The notes beneath the pieces are model-generated. The model was given only the letters and a program-made list of their open reading frames with translations. It did not search any database and was not told the origin of the DNA. Made by a program: the position numbers and the translations under genes. Positions 5,642 to 59,249 of a stretch of 64,000 nt of DNA are shown one piece after another. Origin of the DNA: an uncultured Chloroflexia bacterium (GTDB lineage Bacteria; Chloroflexota; Chloroflexia; QHBQ01; JADMIH01); assembly GCA_963811305.1 (NCBI GenBank), contig CAWEQU010000008.1:324539-388538 (forward strand). The letters are read 5' to 3'. Position 1 is the first letter of the stretch; each line of letters begins with the position of its first letter.

Positions 5642-5812
5642 TTCTGAGAATGTCCAAAAAGCATGAGGCAATGTGTAAAGCCATGAATGTCATTCTGAGC
5701 GAAGCGAAGAATCTACGATTTTTACCACAGCACACGCTCAGAGATTTCTACATTCTTCGCTTCGCTCAGAATGACAGGCTAATTGGTGCTGCTCTTTTTG
5801 AACACCCTCTGA
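5642..5812. mobile_element. MITE-like nested palindrome, long form (copy 1)
   Basis: Inner arms are GTCATTCTGAGCGAAGCGAAGAAT (5688-) and ATTCTTCGCTTCGCTCAGAATGAC (-5776). Outer arms are TGTCCAAAAAG and CTTTTTGAACACCCTCTGAG. Confidence 0.7.
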
Positions 5813-20937: not shown

Positions 20938-21039
20938 CTGTCATTCTGAGCGGAGCGAAGAATCTGAAGATGTTGGGGTGGCTGTGAGCTTGGGAGGACG
21001 TGGAGATTTTCGATTCTTCGCTCCGCTCAGAATGACAGG
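20938..21039. mobile_element. MITE-like palindrome, core form (copy 2)
   Basis: Arms are CTGTCATTCTGAGCGGAGCGAAGAATC and GATTCTTCGCTCCGCTCAGAATGACAGG. The right flank (to about 21100) resembles the flank of copy 4 (28477-28545). Confidence 0.7.
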
Positions 21040-25101: not shown

Positions 25102-25136
25102 GTCTGGCGCGGGTACGACACGAAACTATAAAGAGT

Positions 25137-25219
25137 GCCATTTCGAACGGAGTGAGGAATTGAGAAATCTATCCACCTGGCAACCTTGGAGATTCCTCAC
25201 TTCGTTCGGAATGACAGGG
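25137..25219. mobile_element. MITE-like palindrome, core form, TCCGAACGAAGTGAGGAAT subfamily (copy 3, left arm degenerate)
   Basis: gccatttcgaacggagtgaggaat ... gattcctcacttcgttcggaatgacaggg. Confidence 0.6.
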
Positions 25220-41445: not shown

Positions 41446-41530
41446 TGTCATTCCGAACGAAGTGAGGAATCTCCGTGCTTGCCAGGTGTAGGGATCTCTC
41501 AGATTCCTCACTTCGTTCGGAATGACAGGG
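41446..41530. mobile_element. MITE-like palindrome, core form, TCCGAACGAAGTGAGGAAT subfamily (copy 7)
   Basis: gtcattccgaacgaagtgaggaatc ... gattcctcacttcgttcggaatgacaggg. Confidence 0.75.
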
Positions 41531-42735: not shown

Positions 42736-44389
42736 GTGTGGAAGATGGGGATTTTGGGAACGAACCGCTTTGTAAATAGATTGTGGTTGGTCGAGAAGGG
42801 CAAGCGTGCCTTGCTGCTGAGCGTGCTGGCCGCGCTTACGTTACTCATGGCGGCGTGCTCTGATGACCCGCCCGCGACGCAGCCTACGGCAGTTCCGGGG
42901 AGCAGCACAGCCACAGGCGTAACATCAAGCCTCCCCGGAACTGCGGGTCCCCAACTCCCCCAGCCTACCAGCACACCTCCGCCTCCCCTCTACGTTGGGG
43001 AGCCTACAGACCCACAGCCCGCGCCTACCCGGCCCAGCCCAGCCACGCTTTATTTCACAGAGACGGCTCACTATCTGCGGGGCGAGTTCCTCAATTTCTA
43101 CAAGGAGAATCCAAAGAGCGCTCTTCTCTTCGGCCTGCCAATCACCGAGGAGTTCCCGCAGCAATTCCCCAACAGTGGCATCTACCGCGTGCAATACTTT
43201 GAGCGCGCCAGGCTTGAATGGCACCCCGAATTGCCGGAAGGGAGCAGGGTGCAGCTAGGGGCAGTCGCCCGCGAGGCGCTGGATGGCCGCGTACTTGGCC
43301 GCCTATCGACACTATCGAATACCTCGACGCGCCTCTATTTCCCCGAAACGGGGCACACTATATCTAGCGGCTTTCTCAACTACTGGAAAGCTAATGGCGA
43401 CGTTCGCGCCTTCGGCCTCCCGCTGAGCGAGGAGATGGGGGAGGATGGCGTGACGGTGCAGTATTTCGAGCGTGCGCGCTTCGAATATCACACCGGACTG
43501 GAAGGGACTCCCTACGCTGTGCAACTCTCGCCCGTGGGCTACATGGCGCTGAAAGCGGCAAGGTTCAGCCTCCCGATGGGGCTGATGGTGAGATTTAGCC
43601 CGCCACGCCTCGCGGAAGGGCATACGGCGGTGGTGGAGGTGGCTGCTTCCCCAGGCATGACCGTCACAGGCCAGTATGAAGGGCGGTCCCTCATTTTCAA
43701 GTATGACGCCCAGCGTGGCATCGCCTGGTCTCTCATTGGCGCAGTGCCTTTCGCGGACACGGGCATACGACAGGTAAGCATAACGCTACAGGGTGCGGGC
43801 AATAACCGGCGCACCGTCACGCGCAACCTTGAAGTGGTCCCGTACAACTTCCCTTCGGAGGTGCTGGACTTCGCTGACGACACCGCCAAGCTCCTCGATC
43901 CCGCTCTCACAGCTAAGGAGCGCGAAACGCTCGACACTATATTCTCTGGGCGGACGCCTCAACAATATTGGAGCGGGGCGTTCAGGATGCCTCTCGACGG
44001 GCAGAATTCGCATCACCTCGTATTTTGCTACCCGACGCTGCTACGAGTGCCCGTCAGGCTCCAAGCCGACTACCTATCATGGCGGTATGGACATGGGGGT
44101 TAGAGAGGGTACGGCTGTGCTCGCCCCTGCCGACGGCAAGGTGGTATACGCGGGGCCGCTGGCGGTGCGCGGCAATGCTATCATCATAGATCACGGCCTC
44201 GGCGTATACTCACTCTTCGCCCACAACTCGAAGCTGGTCGCCACCGTCGGGCAGGTAGTACACAAGGGCGACGAAGTATCGCGCTCCGGCAACACCGGCC
44301 TGTCGAATGGCCCCCACCTCCACTGGGAGCTTCACGTCAATGGCCCGCCAGTAGAGCCGCTGGAGTGGGTCAAGCGGGCGATGCCTTGA
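42736..44389 (+). CDS. M23-family metallopeptidase with N-terminal LGFP-like 'VQYFERA' repeats, one frame break
   Basis: Repeats are ..LFGLPITEEF..YRVQYFERARLEWHPE and YWKANGDVRAFGLPLSEEM..VQYFERARFEYH. Catalytic motifs HGGMDMG and GPHLHWELHV are in ORF 43793-44389. The join is near 44000-44060. Confidence 0.75.
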
Positions 44390-44390
44390 G

Positions 44391-44453
44391 ACGGACGAAA
44401 GACGAAGGACGAAAGACGGATGAATAGCCCTATTCGTCTTTCGTCTTTCGTCT
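44391..44453. repeat. palindromic array (GACGAAA-like)4 .. (TCGTCTT)3
   Basis: gacggacgaaagacgaaggacgaaagacgga-N13-tcgtctttcgtctttcgtc. Confidence 0.85.
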
Positions 44454-44468
44454 AGCAGATAAACGGCT

Positions 44469-47460
44469 ATGAACGTACCTGGCCTCCCAACCGGCACCGT
44501 TACTTTCCTCTTTACGGATATAGAGGGGAGTACTCAGCTTTGGGAGCGCTACCCGGAGCAGGCAGGTGCAGCGCTCGTCCGCCACGACCAGATAATCGAA
44601 GAGATAGTAGAGCGGCACGGGGGTAGCATTGTACGCCCTCGTGGGGAAGGAGACAGCCGCTTTGCCGTCTTCTCGCGGGCTACGGATGCCGTCGCTGCGG
44701 CTGCCGCGATGCAGCAGGCCCTCCATGCCGAGCCGTGGCCTACGCTAAGTTCAAAGTTCAACGTTCCAGGTTCAAAGGGCGACAACTTTGAACCTGGAAC
44801 GTTGAACTTTGAACTTAAGGTGAGGATGGCCCTTCACACCGGAGAGGCCGACCTGCGAGCGGGAGACTACTATGGCATCGCGGTAAACCGCTGTTCTCGA
44901 TTGCGTTCTGCTGCGCACGGCGGTCAGACTCTTCTCTCTCGAACCACCTATGACCTGGTACATGAGAATATGCCCATAGTGACCACAGGCATAGAGTTAG
45001 AGCCTGCGAGACCTGGGTGAGCACCTGCTTAGAGACTTACAACAGCCTCAGCATATTTTCCAGCTTGTCGTCCCCGGCTTGCCTGCCGACTTCCCACCTC
45101 TCAAGACCATAGATGCTCGCCCTAATAACCTGCCGGGGCAGCGCAGTCCGCTGGTGGGGCGCAGGTCCGAGCTTGCGTCCGTACAACGCTTATTGTTGCG
45201 CGATGACGTGGGCCTGCTGACGCTCACCGGGCCGGGTGGTATCGGAAAAACTCGCCTCGGCCTGCAAGTAGCCGCTGAAGTGGTAGATGAGTTCCAGGAC
45301 GGGGTCTTCTTCGTATCGCTGGCCCATATCACCGACCCCACTCTGGTCGCCCCGGCTATCGCGCAAACACTGGGTATGCAGCAGGTGGCGAGCGGAGAGA
45401 TGGCTGATGGTCTGGCCGACTATTTGAGCGACAAGCGGATGCTCCTCTTGCTGGACAATTTCGAGCAGGTAATCGCAGCAGCGCCACTTGTCGCCACGTT
45501 ATTATCAGCAGCCCACCGACTGAAAGTGCTGGTCACCAGCCGGGAGGTGTTGCACGTACATGACGAGCAGGAGTTCGCAGTACCTCCGCTCGGAGTGCCT
45601 GACCTCGAACACCTCTCCTCCGTCGAGGCGCTTTCCCAGTACGAAGGGGTGACGTTGTTCATCCAGCGAGCGCGGCTGGTCAAGCCCGACTTTGAAGTGA
45701 CCAACGAGAACGCCCCTGCCGTAGCGGAGATATGCTACCGCCTGGACGGTCTGCCCCTGGCTATCGAGCTGGCGGCAGCGCGCATAAAGCTCCTCCCTCC
45801 CCAGGCTATATTATCTCGCCTGGCGAGCAAGTTGCAGTTGCTCACCGCAGGAGGGCGAGACCTTCCAGAGAGGCAGCAGACCTTACGGAGCACTATGCAA
45901 TGGAGCTACGACCTGTTGCAGCCGGGCGAGCAAATGCTGTTTCGACGTATGTCGGTCTTCACGGGCGGCGCTACCCTGGAAGCGATAGAAGGGGTGTGCG
46001 CCGGAGGGCCAGGGGTCAGGGATCAGGGATTAGGGGTCAGGGATGATACAACAGAGTTGACTCCTGACCCCTGGCTCCTGACCTCTTTAGACATCGACAT
46101 CCTGGAGGGGGTAGGCTCGTTGGTGGACAAAAGCCTAGTGCGGCAAGAGGCCAGCACAATCGCAAGTGGCACGGTTGGCAGGGAGAGGGAACCCCGGTTT
46201 GGTATGCTGGAGACGATGCGGGAGTACGCGAGTGAGTTACTGGAGAGCGCCGAGCCTGCGGGTGGAGAGGAGATACACCGCCAGCACGCAGAATATTACA
46301 TGACACTGGCCGAGCAGGGCCGGGAGGGGATCCAGGGACCTTTACAGGAAGTGTGGCTGGACCGTCTCGAAGTGGAGCATGATAACGTGCAGGCAGCCAT
46401 TAAGTGGGCTGTTGAGCAGGGCGACGCTGAAACGGCACTGCGTCTTGGCGGAGAGCTGTGGATGTTCCGGGGGTTTCGAGCTTATCTCAACGAAGGTTAT
46501 CAAAGGCTGAGGGAGGCGTTGGGATTGCCAGGGGCTGAGGCGCGTAGCAGGGCACGGGCCGTGGCTCTCAGGGGCGCAGCGTTGATGAGCCGTTACCAAC
46601 GCGACCTGCCCTCCGCCCGTGCCTATATAGAAGAGAGCATATCAATTCTCCGAGAGCTCGGACCTGAGGAGAGAGGTGAGTTGGGCATCGCGCTGGTCAT
46701 GTATAGCAGCGACCTGGCGTACGCAGGAGAGCATGAGGCTGCGAGAGGAGCAGTGGCTGAAGGCATATCCCTCCTTCGCCATGCAGGAAACAAATGGTCC
46801 CTTTCAGATGGCCTTTTCATGGGAGGCTTTGCCGCCACCGTCGCGGGCGACCTGACCGCTGCTAAGGAGGCATACGAAGAAAGTATAACCCTATGCAGAG
46901 AAGTTGGGAATACGTGGATATTGTCTCATGCGTTGAACAGCCTGGGAGACCTATCACGCATGATGGGAGACTATGCAAGAGCAAGGGAAGTGTACGAGGA
47001 GAGCTTGAGTTTATTCCGGCGGTTAGACGTCAGGATTGATATTCCTGCCTCATTGCACAACCTCGGCCACGTAGCCCTGGCTCAGGGTGAAGTGGAAGAA
47101 GCGAAGGGCCTTTTCATTGAGGCCCTACACCTCCACACCAGCTACAGGAACAGGTCCGGCATCGCAGAAAGTCTGGCCGGGTTGGCAGGTGTAGCCGGGG
47201 CGGAGAAGCACCCCGAGAGGGCTGCGCGGCTCTTCGGGGCGTCAGCGTCAGCAGCCCCCCAAGAACGGCCAGGTCCGCAGGATTGGGCCGCCGAGCAGGC
47301 AGATTACGAGCGCATCCTGGCAAGCACGCGAGCACAACTGGACGAAGCAACATGGGAGACGGCATGGCAAGAGGGACGCGCTATGAAGATGGAGCAGGCC
47401 ATCGAGTATGCGGTAAGGGAAACCGGCCCTGATCACGAGACGATAGACGATAAACGATAG
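44469..47460 (+). CDS. class III adenylate/guanylate cyclase - AAA/STAND ATPase - TPR protein, one frame break
   Basis: Cyclase motifs are GTVTFLFTDIEGSTQLWE, VRMALHTGEA and GIAVNRCSRLRSAAHGGQTLLS. A shift near 45000 leads to LRDLGEHLLRDLQQPQHIFQLV..FPPLKT. P-loop is LTGPGGIGKTRL and Walker B is LLLLDNFEQV. The C-terminal half is TPR-like. Confidence 0.8.
44747..44816 (+). repeat. perfect 31-bp-arm palindrome of GTTCAAA-type units translated inside the cyclase domain
   Basis: aagttcaaagttcaacgttccaggttcaaag-ggcgacaa-ctttgaacctggaacgttgaactttgaactt. It is read as SKFNVPGSKGDNFEPGTLNFEL. Confidence 0.9.
46009..46084 (+). repeat. partly palindromic (GGGTCAG/GGATCAG) array translated inside the STAND gene
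   Basis: ccaggggtcagggatcagggattaggggtcaggga..ctcctgacccctggctcctgacc, read as GPGVRDQGLGVRDDTTELTPDPWLLT. Confidence 0.8.
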
Positions 47461-55673: not shown

Positions 55674-57002
55674 ATGGCCCAAGACAAAGATTACGCACGC
55701 ATTTTAGCCGAAAAGATTGATAAGTGCACAGCAACCGTTGGCGTTATTGGCCTGGGGTATGTTGGGCTGCCCCTGGCGGTAGATTTCGCACACGCGGGCT
55801 TCAAGGTGGTGGCGCTTGACTTAGACAAGAGCAAGGTAGAGGCCATAAACGCAGGGCGCTCCTACATAAAAGACATCGAGAGCGCCGACGTGCAACGCGC
55901 AGTGGCGTCCGGCAAGCTCCACGCTACGACAGACTACGCGGCCCTGCGAGAAGCCGATACCGTCTCGATATGCGTACCCACACCCCTCCGCAAGACCAAA
56001 GACCCTGACATATCATACATCGTCTCGGCTACGGAGTCCCTGGCAGCCAACTTCCGCCCCGGCCAGCTAATCATCCTGGAGAGCACCACCTACCCCGGCA
56101 CGACCGACGAGGTTATTCTACCACGCCTATCCGCCGGGGGCTACGTTGTGGGCGAAGATTTCTTCCTGGCTTTCTCACCGGAGCGCGTAGACCCCGGCAA
56201 CCCACACTTCAAGACGGCCAACATCCCCAAGGTGATAGGAGGCGTCACACCCCGGTGCCGCGACCTGGCGAGCGCGCTTTACTCGCATGTCATCGAGCAG
56301 ATTGTTCCAGTTTCCTCCACCAGCACAGCCGAGATGGTGAAGCTGCTAGAGAACACCTTCCGGGCGGTGAATATAGGGATGGCGAACGAGCTTGCGATTA
56401 TGTGCGCGAAGCTGGGTATAGACGTGTGGGAGGTGATAGACGCCGCGGCAACCAAGCCCTTTGGCTTCATGCCTTTTTACCCCGGGCCAGGGCTGGGAGG
56501 GCACTGCATACCGATTGACCCACACTATCTCTCCTGGAAGCTCAAGACGCTCGACTACAAGGCGCGCTTTATCGAGCTGGCCTCCGAAATCAACACCGAT
56601 ATGCCCCTGTACGTGCTCGATCTGGTCTCCGACGCACTCAATGACCACGCCAAGCCGCTCCGGGGAAGCAGGGTGCTGGTGCTGGGCGTGACCTACAAGC
56701 GCGACGTTGAGGACGTACGTGAATCTCCCGCGATAGACATCATCAACCTGATGCGAGCGAAAGGCGCGCACATAGACTACCACGACCCTTACGCCCTCAC
56801 TCTCCAGGTAGCCGAAGACCAACCCTCTCTCAAGACTATTGACCTTTCAGAAGATGCTCTTAAAAGCTACGATGCTGTGGTAATCACCACTGACCACAGC
56901 AGCTACGACTGGGAATGGATAGCCGCCTACTCCAAGATGCTGGTAGACACCCGCAACGCCACCCGCAACGTTGCAAACCGAGAGAACATCCGGCGACTAT
57001 GA
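55674..57002 (+). CDS. nucleotide-sugar dehydrogenase (UDP-N-acetyl-D-hexosamine dehydrogenase-like)
   Basis: VGVIGLGYVGLPLAVDFAHAGFKVVALD Rossmann motif; ..GGHCIPIDP.. catalytic Cys; 442 aa, intact. Confidence 0.85.
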   Translation: MAQDKDYARILAEKIDKCTATVGVIGLGYVGLPLAVDFAHAGFKVVALDLDKSKVEAINAGRSYIKDIESADVQRAVASGKLHATTDYAALREADTVSICVPTPLRKTKDPDISYIVSATESLAANFRPGQLIILESTTYPGTTDEVILPRLSAGGYVVGEDFFLAFSPERVDPGNPHFKTANIPKVIGGVTPRCRDLASALYSHVIEQIVPVSSTSTAEMVKLLENTFRAVNIGMANELAIMCAKLGIDVWEVIDAAATKPFGFMPFYPGPGLGGHCIPIDPHYLSWKLKTLDYKARFIELASEINTDMPLYVLDLVSDALNDHAKPLRGSRVLVLGVTYKRDVEDVRESPAIDIINLMRAKGAHIDYHDPYALTLQVAEDQPSLKTIDLSEDALKSYDAVVITTDHSSYDWEWIAAYSKMLVDTRNATRNVANRENIRRL

Positions 57003-57148
57003 AGAGCTAGGTAGCTATCACGCAGCCAGAATTGATCCGAGGGGAGGGCGTTGTGGGTAATTACCAGGAGAGCAACACCACCCCGTCAACAAATACTCTA
57101 TGTCAATTTTCCACGCCTACTATGGAATATACTTGTTCAAGAAGTATC

Positions 57149-57837
57149 CAAACCAACCCCCGGAGGGGGTGAAACAGGTGTAGCCCAGGGCGTAAGCCCT
57201 GTGGTTAGCCCCATCACAAGCGATAAGCCCTGTAGGGGCGACACAGATGAAGCGATGTAAAGGGTATACGCATGTCACACACTTATACATATCTTGCAAC
57301 GCACATCGTATTCAGCACAGAAGGCCGTCTGCCCATCATTACGGAGGAAATCAAGTCGAGGTTGTGGGCATACATGAATGGGATTGTGGGTAACATCGGG
57401 GGTAAAGCTCTTGCAATAGGTGGTATGGCTGATTATGCTCATCTCCTCTTATTGCTGCCACCCACCATCGCTGTGTCAGATGCGCTACGTACATTAAAAG
57501 CTAATTCGTCCAAATGGGTGCGTGAGAGTGTTACGCCTCAACATAAGTTCTCCTGGCAGAGTGGTTACGCAGCCTTTAGCGTTAGTCGTTCAGGTATCGA
57601 AGATGTAGTTCGATATATAGAAAATCAGGAAGAGCATCACCGGAAGTTCTCGTTTGAGACAGAGTTGCCCGCGTTATTAAAGAAGCACGGTGTTATTTAC
57701 GATGAACGCTATCTATGGAGTTGATAGACTTGAAAACAGCTGTATCGCCCCTACGGGGCTTATGCTCATTACGCATGCTAACCACAGGGCTTACGCCCTG
57801 GGCTACACCTGTTTCACCCCCTCCGGGGGTTGGTTTG
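57149..57837 (+). mobile_element. RAYT/IS200-like Y1 transposase unit bounded by 61-nt perfect inverted repeats
   Basis: 57149-57209 is the exact reverse complement of 57777-57837. Each arm contains the hairpins CCCCCGGAGGGGG and CAGGGCGTAAGCCCTG. The inner sequences GCCCTGTAGGGGCG and CGCCCCTACGGGGC are also inverted. Confidence 0.75.
57272..57724 (+). CDS. IS200/IS605-family Y1 (HUH) transposase, REP-associated (RAYT-like)
   Basis: 150 aa. ..YLATHIVFSTEGR.., ..ADYAHLLLLLPP.. (HUH position reads Y-A-H), ..WQSGYAAFSVS.., ..RYIENQEEHH... Confidence 0.75.
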   Translation: MSHTYTYLATHIVFSTEGRLPIITEEIKSRLWAYMNGIVGNIGGKALAIGGMADYAHLLLLLPPTIAVSDALRTLKANSSKWVRESVTPQHKFSWQSGYAAFSVSRSGIEDVVRYIENQEEHHRKFSFETELPALLKKHGVIYDERYLWS

Positions 57838-57884
57838 AGACCCCTTGAACTAATGCAACTCCCTACTAGAGGTTAAAGGTCCAA

Positions 57885-59249
57885 ATGCTCCGCACACTTC
57901 TCCGAGACGAAAGCCAGCAGTTCCGCGTGGTCGAGGACCCCTCGGCTATAAGTGAGATCGTCACGCACAAGGACCGCCTCTTGTGGCTCGACCTGGAAAG
58001 CCCCACAGCCCAGGAGTTCGCGCTTATACAGGAGGAGTTCGGGCTGCACCCCCTGGCGATTGAAGACGCTATGGCCCGCCACCAGCGACCAAAGGTAGAC
58101 ACATATGACAACTTCTATCTAGTTATCTTCTACTCGGTGGCCGTTGAGGAGCCGGGCGCGGGCAAGATACCTGGGAGGCGAGGCTTGCACGGCACAGACT
58201 TCCTGAAGCATCCTCCCGCCGGAAACAGGGCGGACGAGATGCTCGGCCCAGGCACGCCCGACGGAGAAGTGAGCGTACCCATCGTAGAGCGAGAGGGCGA
58301 CGAAGACAATAATGATAACGGGGCAGACGAACGCATTATCCTGCGGGAGCTGACCCTCTTCATGGGCCAGAACTTCCTCATTACCGTGCACGACCACCCC
58401 ATCAGCGAACTGGACGAAGCCGCCAAGCGTTGGACCCGTAATATAGAAAGCATCACACAAGAATCGACGAAGACGCATAACCTACCCGGCACCAGGAAAC
58501 TCACACCTGATGAAAAGGCGAATCTCACGGCGCAGTCCACATCGCAGCAAGGCCAGGACGCAGGCCCGCAGCAGATGATGGACACCCAACCTATACCTGT
58601 ACAAGACCAGGACCGTCCTCTGATGCTCATTCCCGCCATTGAGCCAGGCGAAGGGGCGGACGACGGCAAGAGCTATCACGAGCAGAACATAGGTATACTC
58701 CTCTATTCCCTCCTCGACACCATCGTAGACAACTATTTTCCGGTGATAGACAGTATAGTAGACCGCATCGAAGACCTGGAAGAGCGCATATTCGAGAAGT
58801 ACAGCCAGAAGTCCATCGAGTTTATATTCACACTCAAGAAGGACCTGCTGGCCCTCCGCAAGGTGCTGGCCCCGGAGCGCGACGTGCTCAACATCCTCAC
58901 TCGCCGCGACATCCCCATCTTCGATAATCACACAATGGTTTACTTCCAGGACGTGTATGACCACGTCGTCCGCGTCACGGACAGCATAGACACCTACCGC
59001 GACCTGCTGTCAAGCGCCCTCGACAGCTTCCTCTCGATGCAGAGCAACAGGTTGAATATCACGGTGCAGACGCTCACCTCCGTCTCTATCATGCTGATGA
59101 GCATGGCAGCCATCACAGGCTGGTACGGGATGAACTTCGCGGCGATGCCTGAGCTACACTCTGCCTGGGGATATCCAGGTGTTATGATAGTGGTAGCCAT
59201 AATCCTTGTCATCGAGTTCTTCTTTTTCAAACGTAAAGGCTGGCTCTAA
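57885..59249 (+). CDS. corA: CorA-family Mg2+/Co2+ transporter with large low-complexity insertions
   Basis: ..LWLDLESPTAQEFALIQEEFGLHPLAIEDA.., ..GWYGMNF.. and two C-terminal TM segments. At 454 aa it is about 100-130 aa longer than my recollection of typical CorA. Confidence 0.85.
   Translation: MLRTLLRDESQQFRVVEDPSAISEIVTHKDRLLWLDLESPTAQEFALIQEEFGLHPLAIEDAMARHQRPKVDTYDNFYLVIFYSVAVEEPGAGKIPGRRGLHGTDFLKHPPAGNRADEMLGPGTPDGEVSVPIVEREGDEDNNDNGADERIILRELTLFMGQNFLITVHDHPISELDEAAKRWTRNIESITQESTKTHNLPGTRKLTPDEKANLTAQSTSQQGQDAGPQQMMDTQPIPVQDQDRPLMLIPAIEPGEGADDGKSYHEQNIGILLYSLLDTIVDNYFPVIDSIVDRIEDLEERIFEKYSQKSIEFIFTLKKDLLALRKVLAPERDVLNILTRRDIPIFDNHTMVYFQDVYDHVVRVTDSIDTYRDLLSSALDSFLSMQSNRLNITVQTLTSVSIMLMSMAAITGWYGMNFAAMPELHSAWGYPGVMIVVAIILVIEFFFFKRKGWL

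Follow-up and report, generated by a model that had tools for sequence, protein, structure and literature searches.

The 64,000-nucleotide (nt) stretch of DNA analysed here (the window), taken from contig CAWEQU010000008.1 of an uncultured Chloroflexia bacterium, carries a perfect 72-nt palindrome that is translated in frame within the catalytic domain of a class III nucleotidyl cyclase. The palindrome is composed of 7-nt units of the GTTCAAA family, it is an insertion relative to nearly all homologues, and its two arms have changed together in several lineages. With a probability of roughly 0.6, we favour the view that it is a repeat element tolerated in a permissive loop of the enzyme, with arms held in concert by template switching and copies spread between paralogues by gene conversion. 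As an example of a repeat element residing within a functioning gene, the locus is unusually clear. It also constitutes a natural experiment, in that a copy trapped in frame cannot change its length, so that the pattern of substitutions can be cleanly read; this pattern shows arms that remain complementary even where the price is a change of amino acid.

A perfect palindrome translated within a cyclase domain

An inverted-repeat search of the window placed the palindrome at 44746-44817, where its 72 nt make up 24 codons read in frame. The host gene and the parts of the palindrome are as follows.

44469-45002, + strand: class III nucleotidyl cyclase catalytic domain (PF00211), the first part of a cyclase-NB-ARC-TPR gene
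44746-44777, + strand: left arm, 32 nt, 100% complementary to the right arm
44778-44785, + strand: loop, 8 nt, GGCGACAA
44786-44817, + strand: right arm, 32 nt
45003, + strand: extra C (GAG-C-CTG), not present in intact orthologues, by which the gene is divided into two frames
45004-47460, + strand: continuation of the gene, with an LRDLGEH linker, an NB-ARC/AAA STAND NTPase and TPR repeats

The in-frame translation of the palindrome is LSSKFNVPGSKGDNFEPGTLNFELK, which lies directly 5' of the VRMALHTGEA motif. The arms consist of the heptamers GTTCAAA, GTTCAAC and GTTCCAG, in agreement with the GTTCAA(A/G) unit family named in an earlier note made from the sequence of the window, and the GTTCAAAGTTCAA motif occurs 17 times in the window as compared with 0.76 expected. 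That note had reported a perfect hairpin within the cyclase open reading frame (ORF), with 31-bp arms and a total of 70 nt. The inverted-repeat search, the translation and the folding all confirmed a perfect hairpin in the ORF, and the reported size proved one base short on each side. When folded as RNA, the palindrome region had a free energy of -65.9 kcal/mol, compared with -28.2 +/- 3.6 kcal/mol for shuffled sequences (z = -10.5), and none of the 200 shuffles was as good. Because the same element is carried by independent assemblies (the genome G004 of the same genus and the JGI metagenomes 3300077141 and 3300044812), the palindrome is real rather than an artefact of assembly.

The insert occupies a surface loop of an intact enzyme

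The cyclase domain matches PF00211 over residues 8-165 (E = 2e-11; 44.3 bits versus a cut-off of 21.9). The motif could be located in 111 database homologues; in 105 of these, the loop at this site is 6-9 residues long, and in the remaining six it has 27 residues. Homologues without the insert read PWPT-PxPL-RVR here, and all insert-free sister sequences are likewise short-looped. Sequences lacking the insert, which the earlier note had proposed to look for among orthologues, were found both among these sisters and among the database homologues, and its suggestion of a recent insertion stands in part: the contrast between short loops and the 27-residue loop identifies an insertion, but one that predates the split of at least five lineages and is not recent.

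The alignment to class III cyclases and mapping onto a structure that had also been proposed located the insert in the alpha3-beta4 loop: by sequence comparison with the solved structures of Ma1120 and GRESAG4.1/4.3, it falls between helix alpha3 and strand beta4. An AlphaFold 2 (AF2) model built from 85 sequences, with a predicted local distance difference test score (pLDDT) of 81 and a predicted template-modelling score (pTM) of 0.80, kept the beta-alpha-beta-beta-alpha-beta cyclase fold, and insert residues 98-112 had a pLDDT below 50 and no secondary structure. Using Foldseek, the model was matched to Ma1120, Rv1900c, GRESAG4 and CyaB (E down to 7.6e-12; template-modelling score about 0.7). 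As modelled, the insert would leave the fold intact and form a disordered surface loop that exceeds the ancestral one by about 20 residues. Moreover, D17, D62, D133, N140, R141 and R146, candidates for the metal-binding Asp pair and the transition-state Asn/Arg of class III cyclases, are invariant in the 85 subfamily members, the copy in the window included.

Several features of the assembly might nonetheless suggest that the gene is a decaying pseudogene, damaged by the hairpin and a frameshift, or that the palindrome is an assembly artefact: the window gene is split by the +1 frameshift at 45003, a paralogue in the same genome (G000_C7) has four frame-breaking indels, and the assembly is scored as only 71% 'complete'. 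We consider this explanation highly improbable. Seven insert-bearing copies from other assemblies are intact ORFs of 910-1028 amino acids, the G004 orthologue encodes an intact cyclase-NB-ARC-TPR protein of 978 residues, and orthologues in four other assemblies are both intact and hairpin-bearing. Between the window and G004, third codon positions differ by 23.9% and first and second positions by 5.2% (an approximately fivefold difference); since third positions diverge far faster, the gene is under purifying selection. The idea that the palindrome inactivates the domain, raised in the earlier note, is contradicted by the seven intact ORFs, the purifying selection, the retention of the invariant residues and the preserved fold of the AF2 model.

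The frameshift itself has parallels elsewhere in the same genome (labelled G000). In rpoC (G000:C12:464100-464260), an extra T (GAG-T-CTG) lies inside the invariant PRVEELFEAR motif (GLPRVEELFEAR) and leaves frames of 1169 and 437 amino acids. In the M23 peptidase gene next to the cyclase (42736-44389), an extra A at 44005, as judged against G004, gives two overlapping frames and is probably an assembly insertion error; the M23 orthologues at loci L047 and L048 are intact (464 and 548 amino acids). Because the essential rpoC gene and the neighbouring M23 gene have the same 1-nt insertions, the frameshift at 45003 is most likely an assembly insertion error as well. The assembly seems to carry scattered single-base insertions, which may also explain its low completeness score. 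We also rejected programmed frameshifting, since the hairpin precedes the shift by 186 nt instead of following a slippery site, and since no shift occurs in the orthologues. The G000_C7 copy (L019, G000:C7:383500-392500) may be really decaying, since two of its four indels relative to the intact G004_C4a paralogue (+2, -1, +11 and +1 nt), namely +11 and +2, are atypical of single-base errors.

The two arms of the palindrome change together

Nine insert-bearing DNA sequences were compared: the window, G000_C7, G004_C91, G004_C4a, G004_C4b and those of the metagenome proteins P0002, P0003, P0004 and P0006. In all nine, the insert is exactly 72 nt long and lies between the same flanking codons. 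This revealed double substitutions in three independent lineages, at three adjacent stem positions that are elsewhere A.T.

Window: left AAC (K to N), right ACG (synonymous), pair C.G
P0006: left ACA (K to T), right GTG (L to V), pair C.G
P0004: left GAA (K to E), right TCG (L to S), pair G.C

The two positions concerned in the window are the following.

44762, + strand: left-arm C, in AAC (Asn), paired with the G at 44801; A/T at both positions in the G004 orthologue
44801, + strand: right-arm G, in ACG (Thr), synonymous, partner of 44762

Because the G004 orthologue has A/T at both positions, the change at 44762/44801 is a compensatory double substitution. In two of the three cases, amino acids changed on both arms, and two of the three are A.T to C.G transversion pairs, for which no G.U intermediate is possible. 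Overall, 94.4% of the alignment cells are paired, and three pairs changed on both sides as compared with 0.3 in shuffles, a level reached by 2 of 500 shuffles. In comparisons with G004_C91, the arms differ by 1.6-9.4% and the rest of the gene by 10-19%, so that the arms evolve 2-3 times more slowly (P = 0.002-0.07 per comparison); synonymous sites in the arms are conserved too, and the loop diverges faster. P0003 (L047, JGI 3300044812) has the loop TTGTCGCC, exactly the reverse complement of GGCGACAA in the window, and its arms pair one heptamer out of register, which points to a loop flipped between inverted arms and to unit slippage without a change in length. Some copies (P0002, G000_C7 and G004_C4a) have uncompensated mismatches.

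The changes tolerated in the insert peptide include K to N/E/T, L to S/V, G to E and PG to QS, suggesting that the constraint on the peptide is weak. Since radical residue changes come in pairs dictated by base pairing, it is the stem, not the peptide, that is conserved. This bears on the possibility that the encoded insert is an adaptive regulatory or interaction loop, with the palindrome in its DNA simply recording how it arose. In favour of this, the alpha3-beta4 loop is known to be regulatory, and in trypanosome cyclases it houses an allosteric subdomain of 36 residues (PMC6027212); the nine copies also agree in insert length and in most insert residues, and the insert is fixed in three paralogues. 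However, the pairing of K to E with L to S and of K to T with L to V, the conservation of synonymous sites in the arms and the unstructured, low-confidence insert in the AF2 model all argue against an adaptive peptide, as does the occurrence of the same peptide frame wherever a GTTCAAA hairpin is read (for example, at a second site in the paralogues, described below), so that the sequence would be set by the repeat. We therefore think it improbable that the peptide is the object of adaptation.

The most likely cause of the concerted change would be template switching during replication within the hairpin (quasi-palindrome correction), possibly together with selection on the stem. A change in one arm would be copied to, or matched in, the other arm, and the structure of the nucleic acid would thereby dictate amino-acid changes on both arms. 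Quasi-palindromes are known to be perfected by template switching (PMC7202029), which has also been suggested as a process that maintains hairpins (PMC8794818). The matched arm changes, which include transversion pairs without a G.U route, and the inverted loop resemble what has been described for this process (PMC7202029, PMC8794818). In contrast to the known cases, which come from reporter genes and from rRNA and other RNA genes, the hairpin here lies in a protein-coding loop and the paired changes alter the protein, and template switching is a mechanism that we infer.

The same data could be read in another way, with the stem being a selected cis-acting nucleic-acid element within the ORF that spread to the paralogues because it was useful. 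At the level of RNA, such an element might cause ribosome pausing between the cyclase halves, affect mRNA stability or processing, or attenuate expression of the NB-ARC-TPR part downstream; at the level of DNA, it might be a protein-binding or cruciform site. The compensatory double substitutions, some of them non-synonymous on both arms, fit with this, as do the better conservation of the arms than of the rest of the gene, synonymous sites included, the constant length in nine copies, the high stability of the fold and the retention of the stem in three paralogue groups and at least five lineages, when syntenic intergenic hairpins are not conserved. Yet mismatched or register-shifted copies persist in intact genes (P0003 and P0002; also in G000_C7, where the frame is broken), template switching gives the same covariation without selection (PMC8794818), heptamer hairpins are generally excluded from ORFs, and the reading frame alone explains the constant length. 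Furthermore, the stem has neither a terminator tail nor an Rfam family: a search of Rfam 15 gave generic microRNA-precursor matches only (21-36 bits versus cut-offs of 63-100), and a scan of 44300-45300 found no terminator-like site and no promoter near the element. An intrinsic terminator, comprising a G+C-rich stem and a T run, was accordingly rejected, as the stem is A+T-rich and is followed by AAGGTGAGGATGG rather than a T-run tail. On balance, a useful stem that spread on its merits is a possible but clearly less probable explanation, and the stronger proposition that the stem itself is the selected unit, a cis-acting hairpin in three paralogous STAND-cyclase genes on which selection overrides the amino acids of the enzyme loop, appears doubtful to a similar or slightly greater degree.

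The insert is shared by three groups of old paralogues

To place the insert-bearing copies, trees were built from about 600 residues with the insert removed; these replaced a tree of the cyclase domain only, which was too short to resolve the paralogues. The copies fall into three groups.

Group A: window, G004_C91, P0002, P0003, P0004
Group B: G004_C4a, P0006 (G000_C7 was left out of the ~600-residue trees on account of its broken frame)
Group C: G004_C4b

In the cyclase-domain tree, G000_C7 pairs with G004_C4a at 100/99. Each of the three insert-bearing groups joins insert-free sequences of other species at 100/100 support, and the approximately unbiased (AU) test rejects a single insert-bearing clade (p = 1.3e-55). 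All insert copies nevertheless share a 27-residue loop and a PAL/PTL...LKVRM context, compared with ancestral loops of 7 or 9 residues. Furthermore, DNA identity among the insert-bearing paralogues is 0.86-0.94 around the insert versus 0.55-0.73 elsewhere, and the identity of C4b to its own orthologues drops to 0.46-0.60 exactly at the insert. The shared tract includes coding bases beyond the hairpin (TGGCCTGCGCTG on the left and AAAGTAAGGATGGC on the right, with VRM where the orthologues have VRI/VRL), and groups B and C have the PAL context typical of the insert-free relatives of group A.

Because the distribution is polyphyletic and combined with a local peak of identity, the pattern is best explained by one insertion in group A followed by short-tract conversion into groups B and C. 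In an ancestor shared by a few Chloroflexia species, a hairpin copied from the genome's own GTTCAAA-family heptamer hairpins would have lodged in the surface loop between alpha3 and beta4, a permissive site, without disturbing the reading frame. The host would tolerate the insert rather than use it, a neutrality that is likewise inferred. Its length would have been frozen at 72 nt, since the gain or loss of a 7-nt unit in coding sequence breaks the frame, while intergenic copies turn over fast. The insert would then have been transferred from group A into the two other paralogues, together with about 15-40 nt of each flank, by short-tract gene conversion. An ancestral insert followed by repeated loss was rejected, as the insert would have had to be lost precisely from all sister lineages and from 105 of the 111 homologues, and the local identity peak would be left unexplained.

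The polyphyletic distribution at an identical position would also be expected if there had been three independent insertions at the same codon, by site-specific, homing-like targeting and without gene conversion. The cyclase family has attracted two further hairpins, and there are no long identical tracts between the paralogues that could prime conversion of the RecA type. Against such targeting, the loops, unit order and total length are near-identical in the three groups, when copies across the genome all differ in loop and unit number; the flanking coding bases are shared, as described above; and other copies are without a target-site duplication or a conserved target motif. We regard independent insertion as very unlikely. 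Direct repeats of the target-site duplication type were absent at the borders of the inserts at 44746 and 46005 and of other family members, and the palindrome extends to its own edges, where TA...TA is indistinguishable from the stem. A miniature inverted-repeat transposable element (MITE) was rejected, no such duplication having been found.

Three of the paralogues (C4a, C4b and C4c) lie in tandem within 14 kb of G004 (L017, G004:C4:66500-80500); all are cyclase-NB-ARC-TPR genes, two with the insert and the third without. This arrangement may favour conversion.

The two further hairpins lie elsewhere in the gene family. One of them is in the window:

46005-46087, + strand: second in-frame heptamer hairpin, CAGGGRT units, imperfect, ~-51 kcal/mol, a lineage-specific insertion of +72 nt

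It is absent from the orthologues in G004, P0002 and P0003. The other, a +69-nt in-frame GTTCAAA hairpin, lies just before the DLGEH motif in the group B sequences G000_C7 and G004_C4a and is absent from P0006 and G036; this second site is represented by two copies only, without double changes. Both the +72-nt and the +69-nt hairpins are later arrivals in this gene family.

For the tolerated, conversion-spread repeat that we favour, there is direct support from the insertion and its location, the intact genes under purifying selection, the compensatory pairs, the slower arms, the polyphyly with an identity peak and the exclusion of heptamer hairpins from ORFs. Several points weigh against it. 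A stem of 28-32 bp has been kept in nine copies over up to 19% DNA divergence, when every syntenic intergenic hairpin has turned over, and this equally fits a selected function of the stem. The spread of the insert into three paralogues, and its retention there, exceeds what a purely neutral passenger requires. Gene conversion is expected to be inefficient between paralogues that are only 65-73% identical. In addition, the sequences are few (n=9), and the single divergence tests are only moderately significant.

Heptamer hairpins are a genome-wide population excluded from genes

The genome assembly comprises 4.6 Mb in 21 contigs, with 57% G+C, and contains 651 perfect hairpins whose arms measure 18 nt or more. 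A 7-nt periodicity is seen in 214 of them, which fall into 29 unit families, and 19 hairpins are of the GTTCAAA family. Copies of one family have common units, but their unit number varies and their loops are unique (6-61 nt), and unit variants of one arm are exactly mirrored in the other. With overlapping hairpins merged, and with a hairpin counted as inside an ORF if the open frame continued for 60 codons or more in both directions, ORFs contain 8 of 123 heptamer hairpins (6.5%) versus 55% of random intervals. Heptamer hairpins are thus strongly excluded from ORFs and normally lie at gene boundaries. Of the eight exceptions, three belong to this cyclase family, one to an Aminotran_5 gene and one to a class I tRNA synthetase gene.

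G000:C11:100101-100205: heptamer hairpin in the Aminotran_5 gene, perfect, 105 nt (a multiple of 3), read in frame
G000:C12:328297-328386: heptamer hairpin in the class I (Ile/Val-type) tRNA synthetase gene, perfect, 90 nt (a multiple of 3), in frame
C9:120285-120360: heptamer hairpin in a large membrane protein

Hairpins of related build also flank the cyclase gene itself.

44394-44453: AGACGAA-unit hairpin, intergenic, just upstream of the cyclase start codon
47438-47516: AGACGAT-unit hairpin overlapping the cyclase stop codon; such elements usually lie at gene boundaries like this one

Among the 26 genomes of the genus, only G000 and G004 have the insert with its flanks, and these are also the only two that are rich in GTTCAAA hairpins. 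Over 35 kb of synteny between them (window 28500-63600 versus G004:C91), nearly every intergenic spacer differs in its array or hairpin, or has a hairpin in one genome only, and the genes that flank those spacers are 80-90% identical between the two species. Intergenic repeats turn over very fast; upstream of the cyclase, for example, G004 has four more AGACGAA units.

Relation to known repeat elements

Repeats composed of heptamer arrays have been known for decades in cyanobacteria, and later in Chloroflexus, Xanthomonas and others, and we know of no function or mechanism of spread for them. The closest analogues of the element described here are the Rickettsia palindromic elements (RPEs), with respect to in-frame insertion, and the short tandemly repeated repetitive (STRR)-type and Chloroflexus heptamer arrays, with respect to the class of repeat; it does not have all the defining features of either.

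RPEs are dispersed palindromic repeats that are found in frame in unrelated protein genes, where they add a translated peptide at sites that the fold can accommodate (PMC10969869). Like them, the hairpins in the cyclases, the Aminotran_5 gene and the class I tRNA synthetase are in-frame palindromic inserts, placed in the cyclase at a fold-compatible site. RPEs, however, are about 100-150 bp long, share a family consensus, encode a conserved peptide and lie in ORFs in nearly half of cases, whereas the present elements, from Chloroflexia, consist of tandem 7-nt units in variable number with unique loops, are inside ORFs in 6.5% of cases, and have neither a consensus nor a conserved peptide of that kind. 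One review of RPEs (PMC10969869) mentions neither compensatory evolution of the arms nor spread from paralogue to paralogue, a statement limited to that review, as the primary RPE literature was not searched.

Heptamer arrays have been described with GATAGRA units in Chloroflexus (PMC6749651), GGGNATC units in Xanthomonas and Nostoc (PMC4692102) and TAACTGA units in Beggiatoaceae (PMC4679880). With these and with STRR sequences, the present repeats share tandem 7-nt units in many unit families, a dispersed, mostly intergenic and species-specific distribution, and the lack of a known function; the second in-gene hairpin, with its CAGGGRT units, resembles the GGGNATC type. They differ in that the bacterial arrays were described as intergenic direct arrays, whereas here two arrays stand head to head, form a perfect hairpin and are translated in a conserved enzyme domain. 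STRR proper comes from a filamentous heterocystous cyanobacterium and the present host, going by the source names of homologous proteins (Chloroflexia/Chloroflexota), is a member of the Chloroflexia, so that the two are the same kind of repeat only.

With regard to the enzyme, trypanosome receptor adenylate cyclases have a 36-residue Delta-subdomain in the alpha3-beta4 loop that is regarded as regulatory (PMC6027212). The subdomain (GRESAG4; PDB 1fx2, 1fx4) and the insert are alike in being an extra segment in this loop of a class III cyclase. The former, however, folds into two helices, is conserved across trypanosomatids and has a presumed allosteric role, whereas the insert originates from repeat DNA, lengthens the loop by about 20 residues and is predicted to lack order.

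What is new here is the in-gene covariation and the spread between paralogues. The locus documents, for a class of repeat other than RPEs, that hairpin repeats can be incorporated into permissive loops of functioning proteins and can subsequently pass from one paralogue to another. Should the paired changes have arisen by template switching, they would provide a clear example of mutation driven by DNA structure shaping a protein sequence. If they were instead selected, they would point to a function for heptamer hairpins, and a selected stem would be the first functional role shown for the hairpins of bacterial heptamer arrays.

Other repeats in the window

A separate family of hairpins, with arms of the form TGTCATTC(T/C)GA(G/A)CG(A/G)AG(C/T)GA(A/G)GAATC and loops of 28-47 nt, is present in the window at 5688-5776, 20938-21038, 25136-25216 and 41446-41527, the last of these copies being absent from G004. 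A link of the heptamer hairpins to repetitive extragenic palindromic (REP) sequences and REP-associated tyrosine transposases (RAYTs) was considered and rejected, because the inverted arrays on either side of the Y1_Tnp gene in this genome are G+C-rich and of another sequence family than the heptamer arrays. This gene (PF01797, ~57273-57726) lies between long inverted G+C-rich arrays (CCCCCGGAGGGGGTGAAACAGGTGTAGCCCAGGGCGTAAGCCCTG...) in a 907-nt segment (56987-57893) that is absent from G004 and looks like a RAYT/REPIN-like unit. In G004, a 283-nt hairpin of the same G+C-rich repeat occupies another spacer, opposite window position ~48180.

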